Shown in pieces: positions 2,284 through 64,000 of a stretch of DNA of 64,000 bases (position 1 is the stretch's first letter; every line of letters starts with the position of its first letter). Source of the DNA: Eledone cirrhosa (Eukaryota); contig OZ024741.1 of assembly GCA_964016885.1 (NCBI GenBank), positions 205,034,001 through 205,098,000 of the forward strand, given 5' to 3'. A program made the position numbers and the translations under genes. The notes beneath the pieces are model-generated. The model had not been told where the DNA came from. It saw only the letters and a program-made list of their open reading frames with translations, and searched no databases.

Positions 2284-3370
2284 ACATTCATCATACAATC
2301 TGTCCTTCATTTTGAGGGAAAAGCCTTTTGTAGCTGGCAGTGGTATTAACTCCCTGAACTTTCTCCATCCCATTCTCACTCTGACTACTGCATTTTCAGA
2401 ACACCCACCTTCACTACTAATTTGGTCACCCAGGTATCAGAAGCTGTCTACTGCTTCTACAAAACCTTCCAATAATTTGACAGCAATTGTTTCCTGTGGT
2501 TGTTTGCTGCTTGCTGCTCCTGTACAATGGCCACATGTAAAACCTACATTCTTAGCTAAACTACCTGAGATCCCACTACATCTCTTGTGTACCTATAGTT
2601 TGCACTTGGGACAGAGGATGGAATTTCTACCTATGCCTTTCCTACACACTGAGCAAGGCCATTTTTCTGAGGGATCAGGGCTCTGTTTTTGCTTCAACTT
2701 ATTAGGACTGTAGTCTTTGTCAGGTTGACTTTAAGACCCTTTGTTTCTAGGCCATGCTTCCAGGTTTGGAATTTCTTCTCTAATTCTGCCATAGATTCAG
2801 CTATAAGCGTAAGATATCTGCATGCAGGAGTTCCCATGCAATCAGTCTTAAACTCCTCTGTATAACCTGCAGTACAATAGTAAAGAGGAGAGGGCTAAAA
2901 ACAGAGCCCTGGTGGCTGCCAACCTGCACACTAAATTCTTCACTATAGCCATTGTTAATCCTAACTTTGCTGACTGCTCTCCAATACACAGCTTGTACAC
3001 CCTTTACAAGCTACTCATCCACTTTTAGTTTTCTAAGAGCCCACCAGTTTAAGGCATGGGGGACTCTCTCAAAGGTTTTCTCCAGATCAACAAATGCTAA
3101 GTAGAGCAACTTACATTTTGCTAGGTACTTCTGCTGTAGTTGCTTCACAAGGAAGAGAGCATTTGAGGTACTTTTACCTGGCACAAATCCGAATTGCATC
3201 TCATCTAGACTAATCCGGTCCCTAATCAGCTGTGCTATAATTCTTTTTGTTATTTTCATGACCTGGCCCATCAACTTGATGCCTCTATAGTTTTCTCTAT
3301 CTAGTGCATCTCCTTTACCCTTGTAGCAATTGACAATGATGCTGCTATGCCAATCATTTGGAATGACACA
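2284..3370 (-). mobile_element. Degenerate RTE LINE fragment, inverted relative to the 1-2283 copy
   Basis: Minus-strand ORF pieces YKGKGDALDRENYRGIKL, QFGFVPG, GSHQGSVFSPLLF and GWRKFRELIPL, interrupted by stops and frameshifts. Confidence 0.92.
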
Positions 3371-3764
3371 AGTGTTGCTTGGCTTACAATATGAGTGGTT
3401 AAGGTGTGACCCACTGTATATAAGATAAATCAGATATAATGCACAAAAGAGAAGACAAGCACTGGTATGAAGATGTGATATATATGGAGTATAACAGTTG
3501 TGTAAAGAAATACAAAGTAGTCCAAGTGGAAGGAACATGCAAAAAAAGAAAATGAAGAGATTCATAGGAAGAGGCTAAACTTTATGAAGGAGATGGCAGA
3601 GGACTATAACAGCAAAAAAACTGTACTGAAGAAGACTTATCCAACCCATACAAACGGTTGGTCAAGTATTGGTATTTGAATATATTGCATTCTTCTGCAT
3701 TACAGGCGGCAGTGCACAAGGTGGGAACCAGAGATTTTAAATTTAAACTTCTGTTTATTTTTAG

Positions 3765-35690
<31,926 letters not shown>

Positions 35691-52603: not shown

Positions 52604-53009
52604 GGTAAAAGACTATTATAATAAATGTTGAGATTTAGTCACCTTCTTGAATTTTATAAGTTGACAATTATTGCTATTATCCAAAATGTTTATCAACTAG
52701 ACAATAAGTCTCTCTTTCCAGATATAATTTAATTTATTATATCGAAATAAACGATGTACACGAAATTGCATAATAGCAAAGTTCACATTTTCACCCAAAC
52801 AAATATGCTGACAATATAGATAGCTTGAAATTACAAACACAACTGCCATAGCTGTAAAATTCCAACATATACACAGATATATCTATTAGTTAATTATATA
52901 AATACGTAAATATAGATTCAAAATGAAAGAAAATATTGAATCAACACTAAGTGTGTCAATCGGTCACACACAAGGGGTGCCGGAACCCCTCTTTAATATT
53001 TTTTTAGGC

Positions 53010-53560
53010 AAGCCGACACACGGGCAGCGTTACTGTGGGTGATAGCAATACCAAAGTGATGGAACAACCAAGTACCGTCATAGCATCATCTGACACTTCA
53101 GTAAGGCAAGCTGCGAACGATGGCAAGAACTTTGTTATCAGCAACCCGGCTCCTCCAAACCTCTCGAACGCCGCAGGCTGGAAAAAAATTTGTTGATAAT
53201 TCCCAGTATTTTAAAATATCATTTGGTTCAGCTACAGAACCAATGACTCCCATATCTACCACAGCATCCAGGACGTGCGAAAGAGTAACTGACTGTTGCC
53301 TCCCAAATGAGACATGTACCTATTACCCAGAGACAAAGGGTAAGGCCATCTGATTTCTTCCCATTAACTCTAGACAATCTAGCTGGCTCCAGAATTGGAG
53401 AAATATTTACTCAAGCCAGGGTCTGTGTAGATCATTGTTGTGAGCTCGTAAAGATGAAAGGGACTTTACTGGAGACCGGTTATTGAACTGATCGGCAGTG
53501 AAAGCACTTCTGGTGAGGCAAGTTACAAGACCAGGACTTTAGGGGTAGATCTGAAGCGGA
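53010..53560 (-). mobile_element. Degenerate CRE-clade retrotransposon endonuclease fragment
   Basis: Minus strand reads LEPARLSRVNGKKSDGLTL.LW.IGTCLIWEAT...QPAAFERFGG...FGIAITHSNAARV. Confidence 0.75.
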
Positions 53561-53975: not shown

Positions 53976-55086
53976 GCGGCACGACTAACTATGGAGTCCT
54001 GTGGAGTCGAGGGGCCTACCACAGCGAAATTTCAGTTCCCCACAGACATCGGCTCCCTCTCTGAGTGCAATGGAGATGCGGAGCTCATTCTAGCTGAGTA
54101 GACCATCAATGTTGGCTACGGACAGGGTCTCAACCCAGTCCCCCAGAATTTTGCGCTCACAGAAATACGGTGACACCTTGAGAATCGATCAGATTGATGA
54201 AAGAGAGGTTTGAAGGCGTCACTTGAATGCAGATTGTCCTAAACTTTCTGCTTCAGTCAATCCACTTCAATATCTGGAACTGACAAACCTAACTTACTCT
54301 ATGAGTTCCATGTCACGGTCGGTAATGAAATAAAAACACGTGAGTAAATAGATCTATTTGTATTTACGAGCAAAGGAAAGCAACCGACGTAGTAATGTAA
54401 CATTTTGTGCACAAATATTGTATCAGTCCGATTCTTACCAACTGACCAGGCAGCGAATTTACGGTATGCGTCCTGGCTCTCTGCGCTTTGAGTTAAAATG
54501 CTGTCACGGTTAATTTAATCTTTCTCTGGAAGAAATTGGCTTTGTTCTGACCTGGAGAAGGATCGGCTTCGCCAGATTTAAATGCCTTAGTCATACCGTA
54601 TGATACGACGACGCCCCTACGACTCTACCACTAGTTAAGGGGTCCCGACGCTACAGTTTCTAACAGGAACCAATTTATTTTTTCTGTGTTTGTAAGAAGT
54701 GAGATTTTTTTTTAAATCGAGAGGACGTCTAATGAAAGATTTTCTCCCTACCAGTATTACCAGTTAGATTTTCTATGATTATTCTGCACGTACCTTACAA
54801 AACAACGAAAATAACTTGTATTCAGTCATGAGAAGATAAGATTGGAAACTCGTTCGTATTCTACTGTATATTCTATATTTAAATGAAGTAATTCCGTCAA
54901 GAAGGTACAGGAAAAAAGAGTGCTCTATGTAGGCTACAGAGCTTATTTTGTATTTACTGTAGAGTTGTCTTTCCTTGCGTATTTCCGTTTCTGATTAGAA
55001 AACGTTTTTCTCTGGTATTAGAGGCAATAATTGTATTATTATTTTCTTTTAGATCAGTTAAGTGTTGCTATTTCCCCCCAGCAAAA

Positions 55087-55145
55087 ATGACAGAAAATGA
55101 AGTGTGTGGATCAGCCACAAATCTGGATGTGCACATTGAATACTG
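55087..55145 (+). CDS. MIEN1: MIEN1/SelW2-like coding exon 1 (MTENEVCGSATNLDVHIEY, first two bases of Cys)
   Basis: aaaATG start, donor TG|gtaaat (phase 2); upstream acceptors ending at 55052 and 55081 suggest a 5' UTR exon. Confidence 0.88.
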
Positions 55146-58100
55146 GTAAATATATATAGATTTCTTATAAGGCTTTGACTATTTTGGCCCCATTTTAAAA
55201 ATGGAAATGTTTACATATAGCACTACAACCGTGTCACCTCTATTGTATATGTGTTATCTGTTTGGGAACATATTTGAAATAATACATTTTGTATTTGTCT
55301 TTTAATTTTTAAAAGGGTTCCAAGAATTAACACCCACCTATGTCGTCGTTCGACCATCGAAAGATAGCAACCAAATTTCTTTGAAATTGAATTTTAACAT
55401 TAAATAAGCGAAGGTCATATTTGTTGATGTAGTCATGGATGATTGTTTCCTAACTTCGAAACAATTGAGATGTAAAATAAACGGAAACGGTGAAATATAC
55501 TTAGTTTCTGTTTATTTACTCTGGTTAAAGCTTTTCATTACTTAGGAATTTCTATTGATCCTTCGTTGTAGGAATATGCAACGTAAACTGCGACTACTGC
55601 CAGTTTCTGAAAGTCGTGTTAAATACTGTTGTTAACGGTATACATCTATTACAATAATTTGCTTTCATCTTTATCAAACATAATTTAATTTCAAAGATTT
55701 ACCCTTACTAATAAATCAAATTCAAGCTGAGCTAATAAATAGAAAAGAGATAAAGTCCATGCGTATTACGATATTTCTACTTCTTTTTTTTTTTTTTTTC
55801 CCTACTAATAAATCATTTGGAATTATATACACCGATTAGTCAGATTGATATTGTTCATTTTTCATATTATTGACTTATTGCATTCATTTTCATTCTATTC
55901 ATATATTTTATTACAGTTGAAGTAGTTGATGGTATTATTCTGGCGAATGTCGCCCAACAACGAAGGATCGCCAGAATTACCTATCGATTCCTAAGTCACT
56001 GTATATATTCAGTTAGTCACTCATATCAACTCTTGTTATCTTTGCAACGTTTTGACAATCTAATCTTTGAAAAATTCGGACGTTTGTTTAACGCCAGACT
56101 TTCTCCGGATAAATTGACACGAAAAGTTTGGGACAAATCACGTTTGAGAGACATTTCCAACTCCTTTGTTGATAAATTCGACCAATACTAAAGGTGTCGC
56201 TTACTCTCTGTGAATGCCAAATTCTCATGCGGACTGGCTTGATTCTTTGTTTGTGGCCAACGTCGGTAGCCTACACAGTTTAAATGAGCTCCACATCTCC
56301 ATCACTCAGAATCGGAGCCGGTGTTTGTGGGGATTAAAAATGTTTTCGTGAATTATCATATCGACTAAATGCATGCATAACTACAGTTTAGTGACCCCAC
56401 CTGACTTTGTTTCTTTATAATTTTCTTAATTTTCTTAATAATGCATAAACACTAAACTCTATAAAGTCAATATTGACAAACATTTGAACTCTTGCCACTT
56501 TGAAAAAATGGTATTTCATGTTTCCCTAAATACCTCGCCTAGATATTGGTTTTCTTGTAATTATTCTAAAACAATGCTTGGTTTTATTTTTTACAGCAAT
56601 TCCTGAGGCTACAAGAATCTGGTGGATGAACTTCGTGAAAAGATTCATGCCGAAGTTTCTGAAGCCAGTGTAACTGACAGTATTAGTGAACGAACTGGTG
56701 AGATTTATTATTATGGATTTGATATCTCGGTCATTGTTGTTATTTAACTTGAAATTTACCCTAAACAACATCAAGCCTCAGGTATTTAGGATGTATTGGA
56801 GGGTTTCCAGTAGGCATGCCTTTTGGAATGTCCCCCAAAAAGGGGGATGTTCTTTAATTAGCCTTGGAAACTCTTCAAGAGATTACCTAGTATTCCTATG
56901 ACGATGGGGATGACCTTGACCTCATGAAAGTCCCAAATCCTTTTCAGTTCCCACTTTAGATCCTGGTACCAGTTAATTTTCTCCTTCTTTTCTTGCACTC
57001 TTGTTTAAAGGAGCAAGCTACGTCTATATATAATCAAGCAAGATCTTTTTTCCTTGTCAAAAACCATCAGGTCAGGCTTATTATGTTCAAACAGCCTGTC
57101 TGACCCCACTGTTGATGGAAAACCAATTGGAGTCCTTCCCGTTCACAGTTACGCAACTCTCAGCACTGCTATAGAGCTGTTGGAACAGGGTTGTGATCTT
57201 GAGAGATGCACGGATGAGCTTGAGAATTTTCCAGAGGGATGCATGCTTAACCATATTGAAAGCTGCCTTGAGGTTGATGAAGGCGACGTAGAGGCAGCGA
57301 TCTTTGTGGAACTCCCAAGAACTTTCAATAATGAGACGAAGGGCAGAAATGTGGTCAGTGATAGATCAATTTGGCATATGGGTTACATCTGCTTCTAATG
57401 GCGGGAAGAGCATGGCTGAGGAGGATATTTTTGAAGAGCATGCTTGAGATGGAGAGGAGGGTGATGTTCCAGTTGTTGCTGCAGAGGAGTTTGTCGCCAT
57501 TCATTTCCAGAAGGGAGGATGGTGTCTCGGGTTCAGTCATTTGGGAGCTGCTCTGACACCAATACATGGTTGATGATCATGTTATCTCCACCCACCTTCA
57601 ACATTTCCATAGTGATAGTGTAGATTCCAGAGACTTTGCAGTTGTTGAGCTTCGTCAGGAGTGAAAGGATCAATTCTGCAAGTGTCATAGGTTGCAGCTG
57701 TGTCTGTGATGATGGTTAGACAAGGATCGATTGAGATGAGTGGGTGATGAAGAAGAAGGTTGAAGTGCTCCTTCCAGTGTTTGAGGCTGGCAGCTTCTGT
57801 GGTGATGACATTGCCTTTGCTATCCTTCACCAGAGCTGTCTTGATCCAGGGACTGGCATGGGCTCTGCAGTGTGTGTTGAACACTTGGCTAAGGTTAATG
57901 TTCCTTGCCCCTGCCTCCAAGTTCTTGGTTTCTTCCCCCCCAAATTTCTCCAGTGATCCATGACGACCTTGTTGCATATTCGGTTGAGCCTGCAGTACTC
58001 ATTCATGTTACTACACAGGTGAGCTTTGCAGCGACAGTTGATTATCTCTAGTGTCTGCAGTGAAATCCAGGGTTGTTGGAAAGAGGTCTTGAGTTTACCA

Positions 58101-61100
58101 GAACATTACATGCAGACAGGTTGACACTTGATTTAAAGATCTCCCAGTTGTTGGTCTTGTCTTTGACCAGGACGCTGAAGCGACACGCAAATGTAGAGGC
58201 GATGTTGGGATCATGGTGACAAGATGAGTCAGGGCGAGGCTGGAACTTGGTGTCAGGGTCTGCTTGCAACCTCAGCTTCAGTTTTGTAACCAGCAACTGA
58301 TGGTCAGTATTGCTTTGTAGACCTGGCAGTTGGTGACAAACGACATCCAGCGACGGGAGATGATTATATGGTCGATTGCCTTCTGGGTATAACTGTCCGG
58401 ACTGAACCAGGTCCAGTTATGGATGAGTTTATGGGGGAACTAGGTGTTAGCAATACATAGATTATTGTAGTGAAGCAGGTGGAGAAGTTCAGTAATCAGA
58501 AGAAGAGAGGTAGGCATAAAAACCAAACTCGCTATCTTCAATTTGATATTTGTGCCAACTCTTACCTATGGTCATGAATCTTGGGTAATGACCGAAAGAA
58601 TATGGCCACGAATACAAGTGGCCAAAATGGGGTTCCTTGAAAGGGTCTTTGGAGTAACGTTACTCGATAGAGTATGTAGTTTGAAGATCAGAGAGTCATT
58701 CCAGGTAGAGCTGCTGCTTCTCCGAATTAAGAGATCCTAGCTCCGATACAATGGGCATGTGGTTAGAATGTCTCAGGAAAGAATCGCTGGACAGATTTTA
58801 TGGACAAAACCAACTGGCAGGAAACCCAGGCGTATAGCCCGAGCAAGATGGTTGGATAACTTCCATGAGCTTGGCTGGTCTTGCTTAGGGATGCAGCTGG
58901 ATCAGTTGGAGATGGTTGCTTCTGACAGGACCAATGACCCTCTCAGGAATAAGTGGGTGAAGAAGAGCAGAAAATGATGAAGTTCCTACATCCGTGTTAG
59001 AGTCTAAACAATAGCAACATGCATTTTTGTGAAAATACATATAAAAGTAATTGCAAAATTATAATGTATACCTTTGTTGGATGTTGAATGGGAGGGCATT
59101 GACCCATAGAAACCATACTGAACAATGGGTTGAGAGGACTCCCCCTAGTATTGATGCCACAAAATGCACCCAGTACACTCTGTAAAGTAGCTGATGATAG
59201 AAAGGGCATCCAGCTGTAAAAAATCTTGCCAAAACTGGAATGTATGTAAGCAAAATGTGGCCTTTGGACCATTTGAGAGGGCAGTGGCTTCAATTCAATA
59301 TTGACTTAGTCTGTAACAACCCATGCAACTCTTGCTTTCATGGATAAATGTATTTGTGTTATGGAATTCTATATTGTTATATATGCTACTAATACTGGTG
59401 TATTACTCATTTATCAGAAGTTAACCAAGGGAGGAGGGCTATAGATAGTGTACTATTAACGATGCGGATGACTCAGCATGATCAAACTATTACTACAATA
59501 AAGATAAATCTTCAATGTCTGTCTCAATAAAAGTCTGCACAATCTAACTGATGGTGTATTTCTTTTAAATTATTGGTTCCACTCATTTGACTGAGGCCAT
59601 GCTGGGCCACAACCATAGTCAATCATGTCAACCATAATACTTATTTCAGCCTGGTGCTTATTATATCATTTATATGTCAAACAGCTAATTTTCAGGTCAT
59701 GAGCAACACTGGTTTTTAACCCTTTCATAATTGCATTTCTAATGAAATACACTGTATTTCAATTAATTAATGAGGAATTTTGAGGCATTTACTAAAATTA
59801 CTAATTATTTCATTACTTAGATAGTAATTTAATGTAAGGTTTTTATATAAAATTATGTTGGAAAGATTTTAATTTAAATTGGAAACTTTTAAATTGGGTG
59901 GTTTTATTTCATAGAACTAGAGCTTGATTTGGCCGGATTGGTAACTAAAGGGTTAAACATATGTAAACATAAACATGACACACACGTAAACACATGTGCA
60001 TTATGATGGGCTTCTGTACAGTTTCCATCTCCTGAATTCCACTTCGGAGACATTGGTCAATCTGAGGCTATAGTAAAAAAAAACATGTCCATGCTGGTGT
60101 GAGATTGAACCTGGCACCATGTGATAGTGAAGCGAACTTCCTAACCACACAGCCATGCTTGCACCTATAATACAGGTTTTTATAGAATATTTTAGCCACA
60201 AACAACCCTAATATAAATATCACTGAAATATAGTATTATTTTAACTATAGTTCACTGTTTTGTGGTATTAATTATGATTAAGTTCTTTTGTATCTAAATA
60301 TTGAATAAGATTTATTTTATTCTTTCACTATAGTTGTTGTGGGCTTTACAATATAACAGTTTAATTTTATTTTAAATAAATGATTATATTTAAATAGGTT
60401 TTCACAATATTATTTTTTAAATGTTTCATTCCAATTAATCATGTATAAATGATTCTAATGGAAGTAATATCATTTTTTTTAGCTGCCTTTGAAATTACCA
60501 TCAATGAGAAGTTGGTGTTTTCTCGTCTTCAGTCTTTTTCATACCCTGATTCTGATCAGGTTGGTATTTTCCATTTGATTTAACCATTATTTTTTGTTTT
60601 AAATGTATATTTTCTTTAATTCTATTTTTTTTTTTAGTATAAAGAATAAATGCAATAGCTAATTTATCTGCAACTTTCTTTGTTTCTGTTTGATATCTAT
60701 AAAATTATTTGTACATTTTAATAAATAGAACTTACATGATAGTTTGGTATGTTATCTTGAAAACATTGGAATAGCATTTGTGCTCCCACCTACAAATGTG
60801 ATGAAAAAATCCCAATTTACTGATCCATGTATGCTAGTTATTTATTGTAAAAGAAATAATGTTGACTTCCCTGAAAACACTGAAGACTATTACAGTGTTT
60901 CAAAGGAGACTACATCATCATCATCATCATTTTATGTCCGCTTTTCCCTGCTTGCAAGGGTGGGACGGGTCTTATTCAGCACAGCATCTCTCCACTTGAA
61001 ACAGTCCTTCGTCAGCGATCTGAGGTCTATTCTCACCACCTCCGCCCATGTTTTTCGTGGTCTACCTCTACCACGTCTTCCTTCAACTGGCATTTCCTGG

Positions 61101-64000
61101 CACTTCTTCACCCACCGGTCATCCTTCATGCGCATCACATGTCCATACTACCTCAGTCTCCTCTCTCGTACACTACATTCTATCCCTCTCAGACACAGTT
61201 TCTCTCTCAACACATTCATGCTGGGTCACTCACGCACATTGACATTGCACATCCAACGGAGCATGCTTGCCTCATTTCTCTCCAGCTGTCGCATATCCTC
61301 TGCAGTTGCTGCCCATGTCTCACTACCATGCAGCATCGCGCTCCTCACACAGGCATCATATAACCAGCCTTTCGTACGCAGGGAGAAACCCTTTTTCATC
61401 AGCAGAGGAAGCAGCTCCCTAAACTTCTTCCAACCCGTCCTTATTCTAGATACTATGGCTTCGGAACACCCCCCTCTCATGCTAATCTGATCTCCTAGGT
61501 ACCACCACTTCTATAGCACCCGCCTGCATTTGAAAAATATGTCTATCAATGCGACTTCTACTGTCTAATTTCCCTGTACATCTGCATACGTATTTCTCCC
61601 TACCTGTTAGTTTGCTTGCTTTCCCACTACATCTCTTGTGTACCCAGGATCTGCATTGTGTGCAGTTTATAGAATTTATGCCAGTTCCTTTTCTGCATAT
61701 CGAACATGGCCATTTCCCTGACGGAATCAGAGTTTTGTCCTCTTTTCTACTCATCAACACTTTTGTCTTAGCTAGGTTCACTCTCAGTCCTCTTGCTTCC
61801 AACTGCTGTTTCCATAGCCAGAATTTATTCTCTAGCTCCTCTACTGATTTTGCTATAAGAACCAGATTGTCAGCATAGAGAAGTTCCCATGGACAGCCAG
61901 TCTTAAACTCCTCTGTTATGGCTTGGAGGACTATAATGAACGAGAGCGGGCTGAGGACCGAACATTAATGTACTCCTACTTGTATCTGGAATTCCTCACT
62001 AAACTCCATTCCTATCCTGACTTTACTGACAGCACTTCTGTACAAAGTTTGCACTGTCCTCACAAGCCATTCCTCAACACCTAGTTTCCTTAGGGCCCAC
62101 CAGATGACAGATCGGGGTACCCTATTAAAGGCCTTCTCTAGGTCAAGAAAGGCTAAGTATAGTGGCTTATTCTTCTCTAAGAACCTCTCTTGTAATTGTC
62201 TCACCAAGAAGAGGGCAACTGTTGTACTTTTCCCAGGCACAAAACCAAACTGCATCTCATCTAGTTTGACCCTTTCTCTGATTAGTTGTGCTAATATCCT
62301 TTCTGCCCCTTTCATAACCTGATCCATCAGTTTTATACTGCTATAATTGCTTCTCTCCAGAGCATCCCCTTTACCTTTGTAGCAATTTATGAGAATACTG
62401 CTGCACCAGTCTTTGGGTATGACACCATCATATATAGCCTGATTGATGATGCGTGCAACCAGTTTAGTGTCTACGTCCCCTGATGCCTTCAGCATCTATC
62501 TCCGACGGTCCAGCAGCTTTACCATTTTTCATTTCCTTAATCGCCTCTTGGACCCTATATTCGTCAATCTCAATAGCTGGTCCCTCTGTTGGATCTACTG
62601 AGGGTAATTTCTCTCTCTCCCATTCGTTCTCCACATTCATCAGTCTCTCATAATGACATTTCCAGGCCTCCTTTTTCTGGTCATTCTTGACACTAAGTAT
62701 AGCGGCATCATTCCAGACACATTTATCTCCAACAACATCCTGATTTACATTGACACACTGCCTTGCAATGTGGAACACCGCACGCCTCTGATCTTCCCAT
62801 CGCAGAACATTGGCAAACCTCCTACTCTCAGCCTCCCTGCATGCTAAGTACACCTGACGTCTAGCTTCTCTCTTAGCGGCTGTATATCCTTCTCTACTCC
62901 CACCCTTTTTCCAAGCCTTCCATGCTAGTCTTTTGTCTCTAATAGCCTTATCTACTGTGCTGTTCCACCACCAGGTCACTCTCTGTCTGGTTGGAGCTCT
63001 GCTCCAGCCACAAGTTTCATAAGTAGCCTGCAGTAAGTTGTCACGTAAGAAATTCCAGTTATTATCTATGTCATACATCTCTAAATCGTCTTCTTTTTCG
63101 TCATACACATCTTGAAGGGCTTTCCTAAATTTGTATTTTAGTGAAAGGTCTTTTAGCTTCCAGACCTTTCTTCTCCACACCTTCCTGTATGTCTCATTCC
63201 ATCTCTTGCTTACTGAGATATTACTAACGACTAACCTATGCTGTGGGGTACATTCTTCCCCAGGGTATATGCCTTGGTATTTGACACCATCTGCCTGTCC
63301 CGCTGCCTAACTAGTAAGAAGTCAATCTGGCTTATGTGCTCGCCAGATTTGTAGGTTATTAGGTGGTTGGCAGGTTTCTGGAAGTTAGTGTTGCAAATAG
63401 TCAGTGTACTTGCATCACAAAATTCAAGAAGTCTCACTCCTTTTTCTGATCATTCGTGACACTAAGTACACCGGCATCATTCCGGACACAAAGCTAATTA
63501 TAAATTTGTTAACTAATTATAAATTACTTGTGTTACTGACCTATCAAGATGTAAATATATTTGCCATAGTGACTATATATGAAGTGTGGTCCTTAACCCT
63601 TTAAACTGGCCATATCCGACCAGAATTCTCTCACCTCTTTCTGTTCAAACTGGCTGCTCATACCTACACTAAGGTATTGTTCTCCAAATAAACAATATCA
63701 AAATCTCATAGATTTGATATTCATCATCATCGTTTAATGTCCATTTTCCACACTAGCATGGGTCTGTGAGATAAAGCCTTTACTGTGAAAATATAATAGT
63801 ATATATAAAGTAATGTAAATGCTAAAGGGTTAAATGTCGAAGTTGACATCTTAATAACTTTGATGAAGTATTAATTACTATAAAAATATAGTCAGAAGAT
63901 TTATAGTTTTGTTAAAAAGCATTTAAAGATTTCCATTAAAAAATAATGGTTTTAACATAAATACTATATTATTTTATCAATTCTTTTCAACAGATTGTGA
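55087..64000 (+). CDS. MIEN1: Rdx-family selenoprotein (MIEN1/SelW2-like, CxxU), spliced; 3' end outside window
   Basis: Exons join in phase to MTENEVCGSATNLDVHIEYCNSUGYKNLVDELREKIHAEVSEASVTDSISERTAAFEITINEKLVFSRLQSFSYPDSDQIV; U is TGA at 56604-56606. Confidence 0.9.
56597..56697 (+). CDS. MIEN1: MIEN1/SelW2-like coding exon 2 with the Sec codon (C-N-S-U-G-Y...)
   Basis: ttttacag acceptor, gtgag donor; C AAT TCC TGA GGC TAC AAG, frame open after the TGA. Confidence 0.92.
57050..58490 (-). mobile_element. Degenerate RTE LINE (third family), intronic
   Basis: Fragments WTWFSPDSYTQKAIDHIII, WKEHFNLLL and YVAFINLKAAFNMV. Confidence 0.85.
58500..58980 (+). mobile_element. 3' fragment of the second RTE family
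   Basis: Peptide IFVPTLTYGHESWVMTER...GHVVRM...KPTGRKPR. Confidence 0.85.
60004..60168 (-). mobile_element. tRNA-derived SINE
   Basis: Minus strand: A box tggctgtgtgg, B box ggttcaatc, body ending ggaaactgtacagaagccc next to a (CA)-rich tract. Confidence 0.75.
60483..60559 (+). CDS. MIEN1: MIEN1/SelW2-like coding exon 3 (AFEITINEKLVFSRLQSFSYPDSDQ)
   Basis: ttttttttag acceptor, gttggt donor; Rdx motif FEI.IN..LVFS.L....P. Confidence 0.92.
60914..63490 (-). mobile_element. Degenerate RTE LINE, 5'-truncated in APE, with (GAT)n tail; intronic
   Basis: ORF pieces covering APE end, RT, PHD-like finger and C-terminus; tail at 60914. Confidence 0.95.
63597..63829. mobile_element. piggyBac-type MITE carrying an inserted RTE/SINE tail
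   Basis: Homologous to 16661-16853, TTAA flanks; (cat)n tail fragment at about 63720-63765. Confidence 0.8.
63994..64000 (+). CDS. MIEN1: Start of MIEN1/SelW2-like coding exon 4 (IV...), truncated by window end
   Basis: ttcttttcaacag acceptor, phase 0; ATT GTG fits the expected final helix, but only 7 nt are visible. Confidence 0.6.

Follow-up and report, generated by a model that had tools for sequence, protein, structure and literature searches.

Selenoproteins of the SELENOW2 type are known from invertebrates, fish and amphibians, and they combine the Rdx fold with a CxxU motif and the insertion of selenocysteine (Sec, U) directed by a selenocysteine insertion sequence (SECIS). In this work, we describe a gene that appears to share these features, designated copy A, in a 64,000-nt stretch of the Eledone cirrhosa genome (the window; C2:205034001-205098000 of a 3.0-Gb genome, with the numbering carried on past its end for extended positions), together with three paralogs, B, C and D, on the same chromosome. 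In the literature, SELENOW2 and MIEN1 are treated as sister clades, all invertebrate members fall in the SELENOW2 branch, MIEN1 proper is a duplicate of jawed vertebrates, and SELENOW2 has been repeatedly duplicated in fish (PMC13134290). Three vertebrate forms, SelW2a-c, have been reported, together with the absence of Cys-to-Sec events in vertebrates (PMC3316567). The limpet Lottia has three SelW-family genes, as counted from the column order of a table (PMC3473315), and multiple SelW-family genes in an invertebrate would therefore not be unusual. Unlike the described SELENOW2 genes, the present family has four copies scattered over a single chromosome, and their proteins diverge rapidly; judged by titles and abstracts, we found no report of this expansion.

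The best solved relative, by sequence and by fold as judged on a close ortholog of copy A, is human MIEN1 (C17orf37/Rdx12; PDB 2LJK), which also ends in a CaaX box with a terminal Leu. Its CVIL tail is geranylgeranylated and provides a membrane anchor (PMC6738349), and its disulfide has a redox potential of -225 mV (PMC3527542). The two proteins differ in the redox motif, CxxC in amniotes versus CxxU in copy A, and in the GAFEI of MIEN1 versus AAFEI; a mammalian MIEN1 and copy A are 25% identical (26/104).

With high confidence, we interpret the locus as a four-exon SELENOW2/MIEN1-type Rdx gene whose UGA is likely recoded by means of a downstream hairpin, and whose product would be a small thioredoxin-like CxxU protein of 106 residues, with geranylgeranylation predicted and a likely role as a membrane-tethered thiol/selenol oxidoreductase (Table 1). 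The exons are bounded by GT..AG, agree in phase and join into a single frame of 106 codons with one internal stop, a TGA, giving MTENE...VHIEYC-N-S-[TGA]-GYK...AFEITINEKLVFSRL...YP, followed by IVNLL...GCTIL from beyond the window, where a CaaX box recognized by its sequence (CTIL) precedes the TAA stop codon (extended 64075-64077). The preliminary description of this DNA had proposed the same exons, TGA and motif, a Cys codon interrupted by an intron and a frame open past the TGA. All of these were borne out, with Cys20 divided as TG and C across 55145/56597 and 83 further codons leading up to the CaaX box; the protein then described was incomplete, as it extends to the CaaX tail beyond the window. 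A TTTTAG acceptor 5' of the copy A ATG implies an additional non-coding exon upstream, although none was located; an acceptor-like TTAG lies some tens of nt 5' of the ATG in 4/4 copies. A candidate 5' exon common to A and D (window 53000-53421) was ruled out as a repeat with 2192 candidates in the genome. One sample, sequenced in three public runs, provided contigs that show no alternative letter across 54919-56749. These contigs are possibly the source of the assembly itself and therefore speak against assembly error only, which is unlikely as an explanation of the TGA; they include introns and are DNA-like, and the listed rows contain no splice joint. Given the Pfam match of exon 3, the collinear database proteins and the paralogs repeating the exon plan, the gene is not a chance pattern.

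Table 1. Positions of the copy A gene, its hairpin and paralogs, and of reverse transcriptase-related sequences in the window.
Feature	Position	Strand	Basis or remark
Probable 5' untranslated region (UTR) part of first coding exon	55053..55086	+	inferred; follows TTTTAG acceptor
Coding exon 1 (MTENE...VHIEY + TG of split Cys20 codon)	55087..55145	+	collinear with P0007, P0158
Coding exon 2, 101 nt	56597..56697	+	length identical in 4/4 copies
In-frame TGA, codon 23, C-N-S-U; predicted selenocysteine	56604..56606	+	4/4 copies; W in orthologs; contigs invariant
Coding exon 3, 77 nt (AFEITINEKLVFSRL, Rdx core strands)	60483..60559	+	Pfam PF10262 E 8e-4; MIEN1 2LJK profile match
Exon 4, first 7 nt inside window	63994..64000	+	coding part ends extended 64077, CTIL-TAA
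SECIS-type hairpin, past window	extended 64999-65081 (core 65018-65058)	+	pattern, fold, paralog conservation
Copy B	C2:166730783-166741699		CDTU, CIAL, 150 aa, long in-frame N-terminus
Copy C	C2:74100277-74115061		probable UxxU, CLIL, hairpin kept
Copy D	C2:160905872-160920317		CQGU, 86 aa, CaaX lost, hairpin intact
Non-LTR (long terminal repeat) retrotransposon open reading frame (ORF), 925 aa, endonuclease + RVT_1 domains	5453-8230	+	open frame, domain matches
Reverse transcriptase fragment	3011-3574	-	
Reverse transcriptase fragment	33460-34032	+	

Beyond the window, 940 nt 3' of the copy A stop codon, lies a SECIS-type hairpin, in agreement with the earlier expectation of a SECIS past the window end. 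It comprises an AUGAA core at 65018, a GGAU ending at 65058, an apical AAA, a 15-bp helix I and a helix II in which 9/10 positions are paired, with one mismatch and no G-U pairs. A loose pattern made for this analysis (RUGA..GA core, helix II, apical AA, helix I) matched 113.5 kb at four sites on the + strand and three on the - strand, the hairpin being the only strong match of the + strand. A strict pattern, defined only after the hairpin had been seen, was matched by 1/1000 dinucleotide shuffles of the 1.1-kb UTR, whereas each of the four loci contains a single match on its + strand. The minimum free energy of the hairpin is -29.4 kcal/mol (z -4.68), and no shuffled sequence was equally stable (0/200). 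A genome DNA search with the hairpin returned 4/4 candidates consisting of itself and loci at C2:166.75, 74.12 and 160.92 Mb, 82-87% identical, versus the 2192 candidates of the repeat near the gene; a search from the copy C hairpin recovered the same four loci, such counts within this genome being lower bounds. An origin as a transposon end was ruled out by these four genome-wide candidates, each 3' of a family copy. The 41-nt hairpin core is identical between copies at 35-38/41 positions (85-93%) and exons 2+3 at just 103-123/178 (58-69%); thus, the core is conserved more strongly than the coding exons. Across the copies helix II is 100% paired in 4/4, where one change is two-sided and another one-sided, and the four-copy structure beats all slid controls. 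A covariance model built from the four hairpins found only its training sequences in 246 kb, and local Rfam scans of the downstream DNA gave mainly low-complexity miRNA-family noise. A candidate poly(A) signal, ATTAAA, lies 3' of the hairpin at extended 65112-65117, as a motif match only.

The selenocysteine reading of the TGA, as first proposed, is supported by this element and by the site itself, which is kept in 4/4 copies though its flanking codons diverge, and carries W in orthologous proteins. The preliminary description had taken the absence of a SECIS together with a Cys codon in close relatives as the mark of a pseudogene or sequencing error, and this combination was not encountered. 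Further, C20-N-S-TGA23 aligns with the Cys/Sec of homologs, with conservation on both sides of the site, and in a crude star-tree neutral simulation four frames without new stops arose with P 3e-4 to 2e-5. The decoding machinery is represented in the genome by two tRNA-Sec genes with a TCA anticodon and by SepSecS (six exon matches). The tRNA-Sec genes, at C23:15059770 (+) and 15118228 (-), have equal scores and lie 58 kb apart in opposite orientation. Possible hairpins also directly follow the Sec TGA in every copy (in A at window 56607-56653), with energies of -7 to -15 kcal/mol.

As to the family, exon 3 of copy A alone matches Pfam Rdx (PF10262) with E 8e-4 and 19.9 bits, below the 22.6 cut-off, and exon 3 of B, C and D scores 21.5, 23.4 and 15.8 bits, respectively; exon 2 alone matches no Pfam family, and its profile gave no meaningful PDB match. 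The ortholog P0007, 77% identical to A, reaches 54.5 bits, above the cut-off. A four-copy exon-3 profile matches MIEN1 (2LJK) with E 1.2e-6 versus 0.11 for SELENOW1, and P0007 matches it with E 4e-11 over ortholog residues 11-106, through the CaaX box. The predicted fold of P0007, with W at position 23, has a predicted local distance difference test (pLDDT) score of 82.7 and places the motif between strand 1 (14-20) and helix 1 (26-39); Foldseek searches with this model returned 2LJK at the top, the best matches being MIEN1 and SelW-related proteins. Mouse SelW (SELENOW1, PDB 2NPB) shares the CxxU Rdx fold (Foldseek E 1.8e-4), but its match to the P0007 sequence is much weaker (E 0.25) and ends at residue 79, short of the CaaX tail. 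The Rdx family motif is GxFEI/V; FEI or FEV is present in 4/4 copies, within GAFE in B, C and D, and as AAFEI in A, which like its orthologs has Ala for Gly. Copy A is closer to MIEN1 than to SELENOW1, and its assignment to the SELENOW2 rather than the MIEN1 branch rests on PMC13134290, as our 30-row tree had no labelled SELENOW2. The initial designation as a MIEN1/SelW2-like Rdx protein holds for the family, the motif and the FEI; on the cited account of MIEN1 proper, it is to be corrected to the SELENOW2 branch. Copy A thus adds a member to a selenoprotein family that was already known, and the single gene is less novel than first thought.

A protein search with the four-copy exon-3 alignment found 4/9 candidates; when either exon 2 or exon 3 was used with its intron flank, longer proteins gave 0/22 and 0/3 candidates. 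Two of the proteins retrieved, P0003 and P0004, come from Logan contigs of 1.2-1.3 kb and follow the gene model through exons 2, 3 and 4. P0007 (106 aa, P0004 cluster) is identical to A at 82/106 positions without gaps, and P0158 (107 aa, 7 contigs) at 73/106; both are unnamed, read CNSW at the motif (W at residue 23 in P0007), and align with the spliced A product over each of its three junctions. In the same two clusters, P0004 and P0157 (the latter with 58 contigs) begin after the TGA site. The short exon-joined contigs are best read as transcripts of related organisms, and the W would be the usual outcome of a gene call with TGA=W. Among 149 homologs, most of the named ones annotated as MIEN1 or MIEN1-like, 147 were aligned (2 over 260 aa were excluded): 76 have C..W, 24 have C..C and the motif region is missing from 30, with a CaaX-like C-terminus by a loose pattern in 61. 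W in 76/147 diverse homologs against a background of 1.2% fits a gene-caller artefact; a WxxW-type motif was found in 0 of the 149, and database relatives close to B, C or D were not found. In the 30-row tree, whose backbone is weak (75/70), the four copies and the close orthologs form one group (100/99) that contains one long-branch outsider, and A, whose branch is short (0.054), groups with the orthologs (91/86). The p-value of the approximately unbiased test (p-AU) is 0.065 for monophyly of the four copies alone and 0.51 with the close orthologs included.

The three paralogs share a common plan, with each hairpin 3' of a gene with exons 2 and 3 of 101 and 77 nt, the same phases and GT-AG introns; two of the hairpin copies adjoin the genome's other Rdx matches. 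The copy B hairpin lies 4064 nt after the stop, far more distant than in the other copies. In copy D, a shortened exon 4 has removed the CaaX box, of which a tail remnant persists in another frame, and the hairpin carries a compensatory A-U pair. The first Cys codon of the motif is TGC in A and D and TGT in B. In copy C, exon 1 ends with TAC TG before gt, and exon 2 starts after ag with A AGT GCA TGA, so that the split first codon is itself TGA; given the SECIS-type hairpin downstream, the motif would likely be translated as U-S-A-U. Copy C therefore probably encodes a UxxU motif with two selenocysteines, a reading that rests on one base of the assembly, and no second copy of its exon 2 for comparison was found in the assembly. 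Its acceptor is a tandem TAG/AAG, whose distal AAG, 3 nt downstream, stays in frame and would give C-A-U. The proximal TAG is the acceptor normally preferred.

UxxU forms of SELENOW have been described in amphioxus and Ostreococcus lucimarinus (PMC7539508, PMC3473315), although not in the available part of PMC2874816, and the copy C motif is therefore rare rather than new. As in those proteins, two Sec codons would have arisen by a Cys-to-Sec change; unlike them, copy C has the change at an intron-split codon and bears a CaaX box, and three CxxU sisters fix its direction. SELENOL, described as peroxiredoxin-like, forms a diselenide (PMC13134290), whereas exon 3 of copy C matches Rdx only. Our survey of titles and abstracts gave no prenylated UxxU protein.

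Copy A is the conserved member of the family, and B, C and D are faster-evolving duplicates at the DNA level. Between copies, proteins are 32-47% identical, with synonymous divergence (dS) of 0.44-0.74 and non-synonymous to synonymous ratios (dN/dS) of 0.69-0.94 (Nei-Gojobori, 84-105 codons; copy B computed with a shorter start than its 150-aa frame). A possible, still tentative history is that one SELENOW2/MIEN1 gene gave rise to four live selenoproteins with diversified redox chemistry and location, including a recent Cys-to-Sec UxxU copy; A would be a membrane-anchored CxxU protein, B an N-terminally extended one, D soluble, and C a prenylated UxxU protein. The strongest competing account, which we regard as unlikely although a serious contender, is that B, C and D are duplicates in decay, the first-motif TGA of copy C being due to a nonsense allele or an erroneous base call. 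Such decay would agree with the long branches of B and D (1.26 and 1.45), the dN/dS of 0.85-0.94 among B, C and D, the truncated tail of D, the lack of close database relatives and the single base behind the copy C motif. Against decay, all three retain splice sites, frame, Sec TGA and hairpin; the terminal branch of copy C is short (0.1) and CLIL is retained there; its new stop is a TGA exactly at the motif Cys, one of 47 single changes that could create a stop in its frame; and the alternative AAG acceptor also leaves the frame open.

Following established eukaryotic selenocysteine biology, SBP2 would bind the kink-turn core of the hairpin, and eEFSec would bring Sec-tRNA to UGA codon 23. 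By analogy with human MIEN1, geranylgeranyltransferase I (GGTase-I) would then geranylgeranylate Cys103 of the CTIL tail, anchoring copy A at a cytosolic membrane, where a reversible Cys20-Sec23 selenenylsulfide may act on membrane-proximal proteins; signalling or cytoskeletal proteins are a guess at its targets. Alternatively, the product could be a selenoprotein that is soluble or a non-redox adaptor, its CaaX unused or its CxxU non-catalytic. Copy D, which retains the TGA and hairpin without a CaaX box, would fit this alternative, as would the 60/76 C..W homologs without CaaX (by a loose pattern, and many of them maybe truncated or from other Rdx subfamilies), and the available parts of the cited papers establish no substrate for the SELENOW2/MIEN1 subfamily. 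Nevertheless, the CaaX box is retained in 3/4 copies (CTIL, CIAL and CLIL in A, B and C) and in all close orthologs (CIIL, CVIL), and human MIEN1 is prenylated with a measurable redox couple, as cited above, which makes a soluble or non-redox product rather improbable. On the best reading, copy A is an intact Rdx-family selenoprotein from the SELENOW2/MIEN1 branch, with prenylation and membrane binding likely.

Several results weigh against the interpretation of copy A as a membrane-tethered selenoprotein. Rfam SECIS_1 (RF00031) did not report the hairpin in the downstream DNA at E<=10, and genome-wide it gave 0 matches above the 35-bit cut-off, the best reaching 33.2 bits elsewhere (129 of 57266 candidates scored); in a genome with Sec machinery, the model therefore looks insensitive here. 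Covariation in the hairpin was equalled by 64/500 column shuffles, with four sequences only. An AATAAA lies 5' of the hairpin at extended 64870-64875, 793 nt after the stop, and its use would yield a SECIS-less mRNA. The pairwise dN/dS values indicate weak coding constraint between copies, and TGA retention by itself has P 0.03-0.1 in the neutral simulation, which is weak evidence. The W of P0007 and P0158 could be encoded by TGG. Finally, the prenylation, localisation and substrates suggested for copy A are taken over from human MIEN1. The four genome-wide RF00031 matches, all sub-threshold (30-33 bits) and none of them at the hairpin, lie on C4 and C11 and are possible SECIS elements of other selenoprotein genes.

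Some of these points would suit a nonsense pseudogene or a sequencing error, with translation ending after 22 residues: no transcript turned up for this species, whose listed sequencing runs included none of RNA and say nothing on expression, the hairpin was missed by Rfam, and dN/dS between copies is near 1. We consider this explanation very improbable, given the frame that stays open to a conserved CaaX box, the contigs matching the assembly, three paralogs with the same TGA and hairpin at their level of synonymous divergence, orthologs 69-77% identical over the full length, and the short branch of copy A. Decoding of the UGA as Trp or Cys through a code change or leaky read-through, with an incidental hairpin, is the least probable explanation: the W of database orthologs would agree with it, but the W excess over background, the siblings truncated at the same site, a hairpin better conserved than the coding exons and the tRNA-Sec genes all speak against it.

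In the surroundings of the gene, intron 3 of copy A holds a very high-copy repeat of ~2.5 kb (window 60840-63450; contig depth 1e5-8e5), LINE-like (long interspersed element) by eye, and two of its ORFs matched no Pfam family. A 2566-nt copy of this repeat, 88% identical, lies in intron 3 of copy B in opposite orientation. Elsewhere in the genome, tandem tRNA-like arrays occur at C1:441.187-441.228 Mb (~1.68-kb spacing) and C10:51.299-51.328 Mb (~3 kb), sub-threshold in the tRNA-Sec search.

Copy A is in itself ordinary, yet easily mis-annotated, as database siblings of the orthologs either begin beyond the UGA or have W in its place, and its hairpin is an example of a SECIS-type element overlooked by the Rfam model. 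The four-copy family outweighs the single gene, as it offers a within-genome series made up of CxxU proteins that have or lack a lipid anchor, plus a probable UxxU protein, which could show the effect of a second selenium in a thioredoxin fold. Copy C would represent a polarised Cys-to-Sec gain, of a kind that was not found in vertebrates (PMC3316567). If this holds true, the TAG/AAG choice could switch copy C between U-x-x-U and C-x-U, and copy C would provide a naturally occurring diselenide oxidoreductase tethered to the membrane, for which the CxxU sisters serve as built-in controls.

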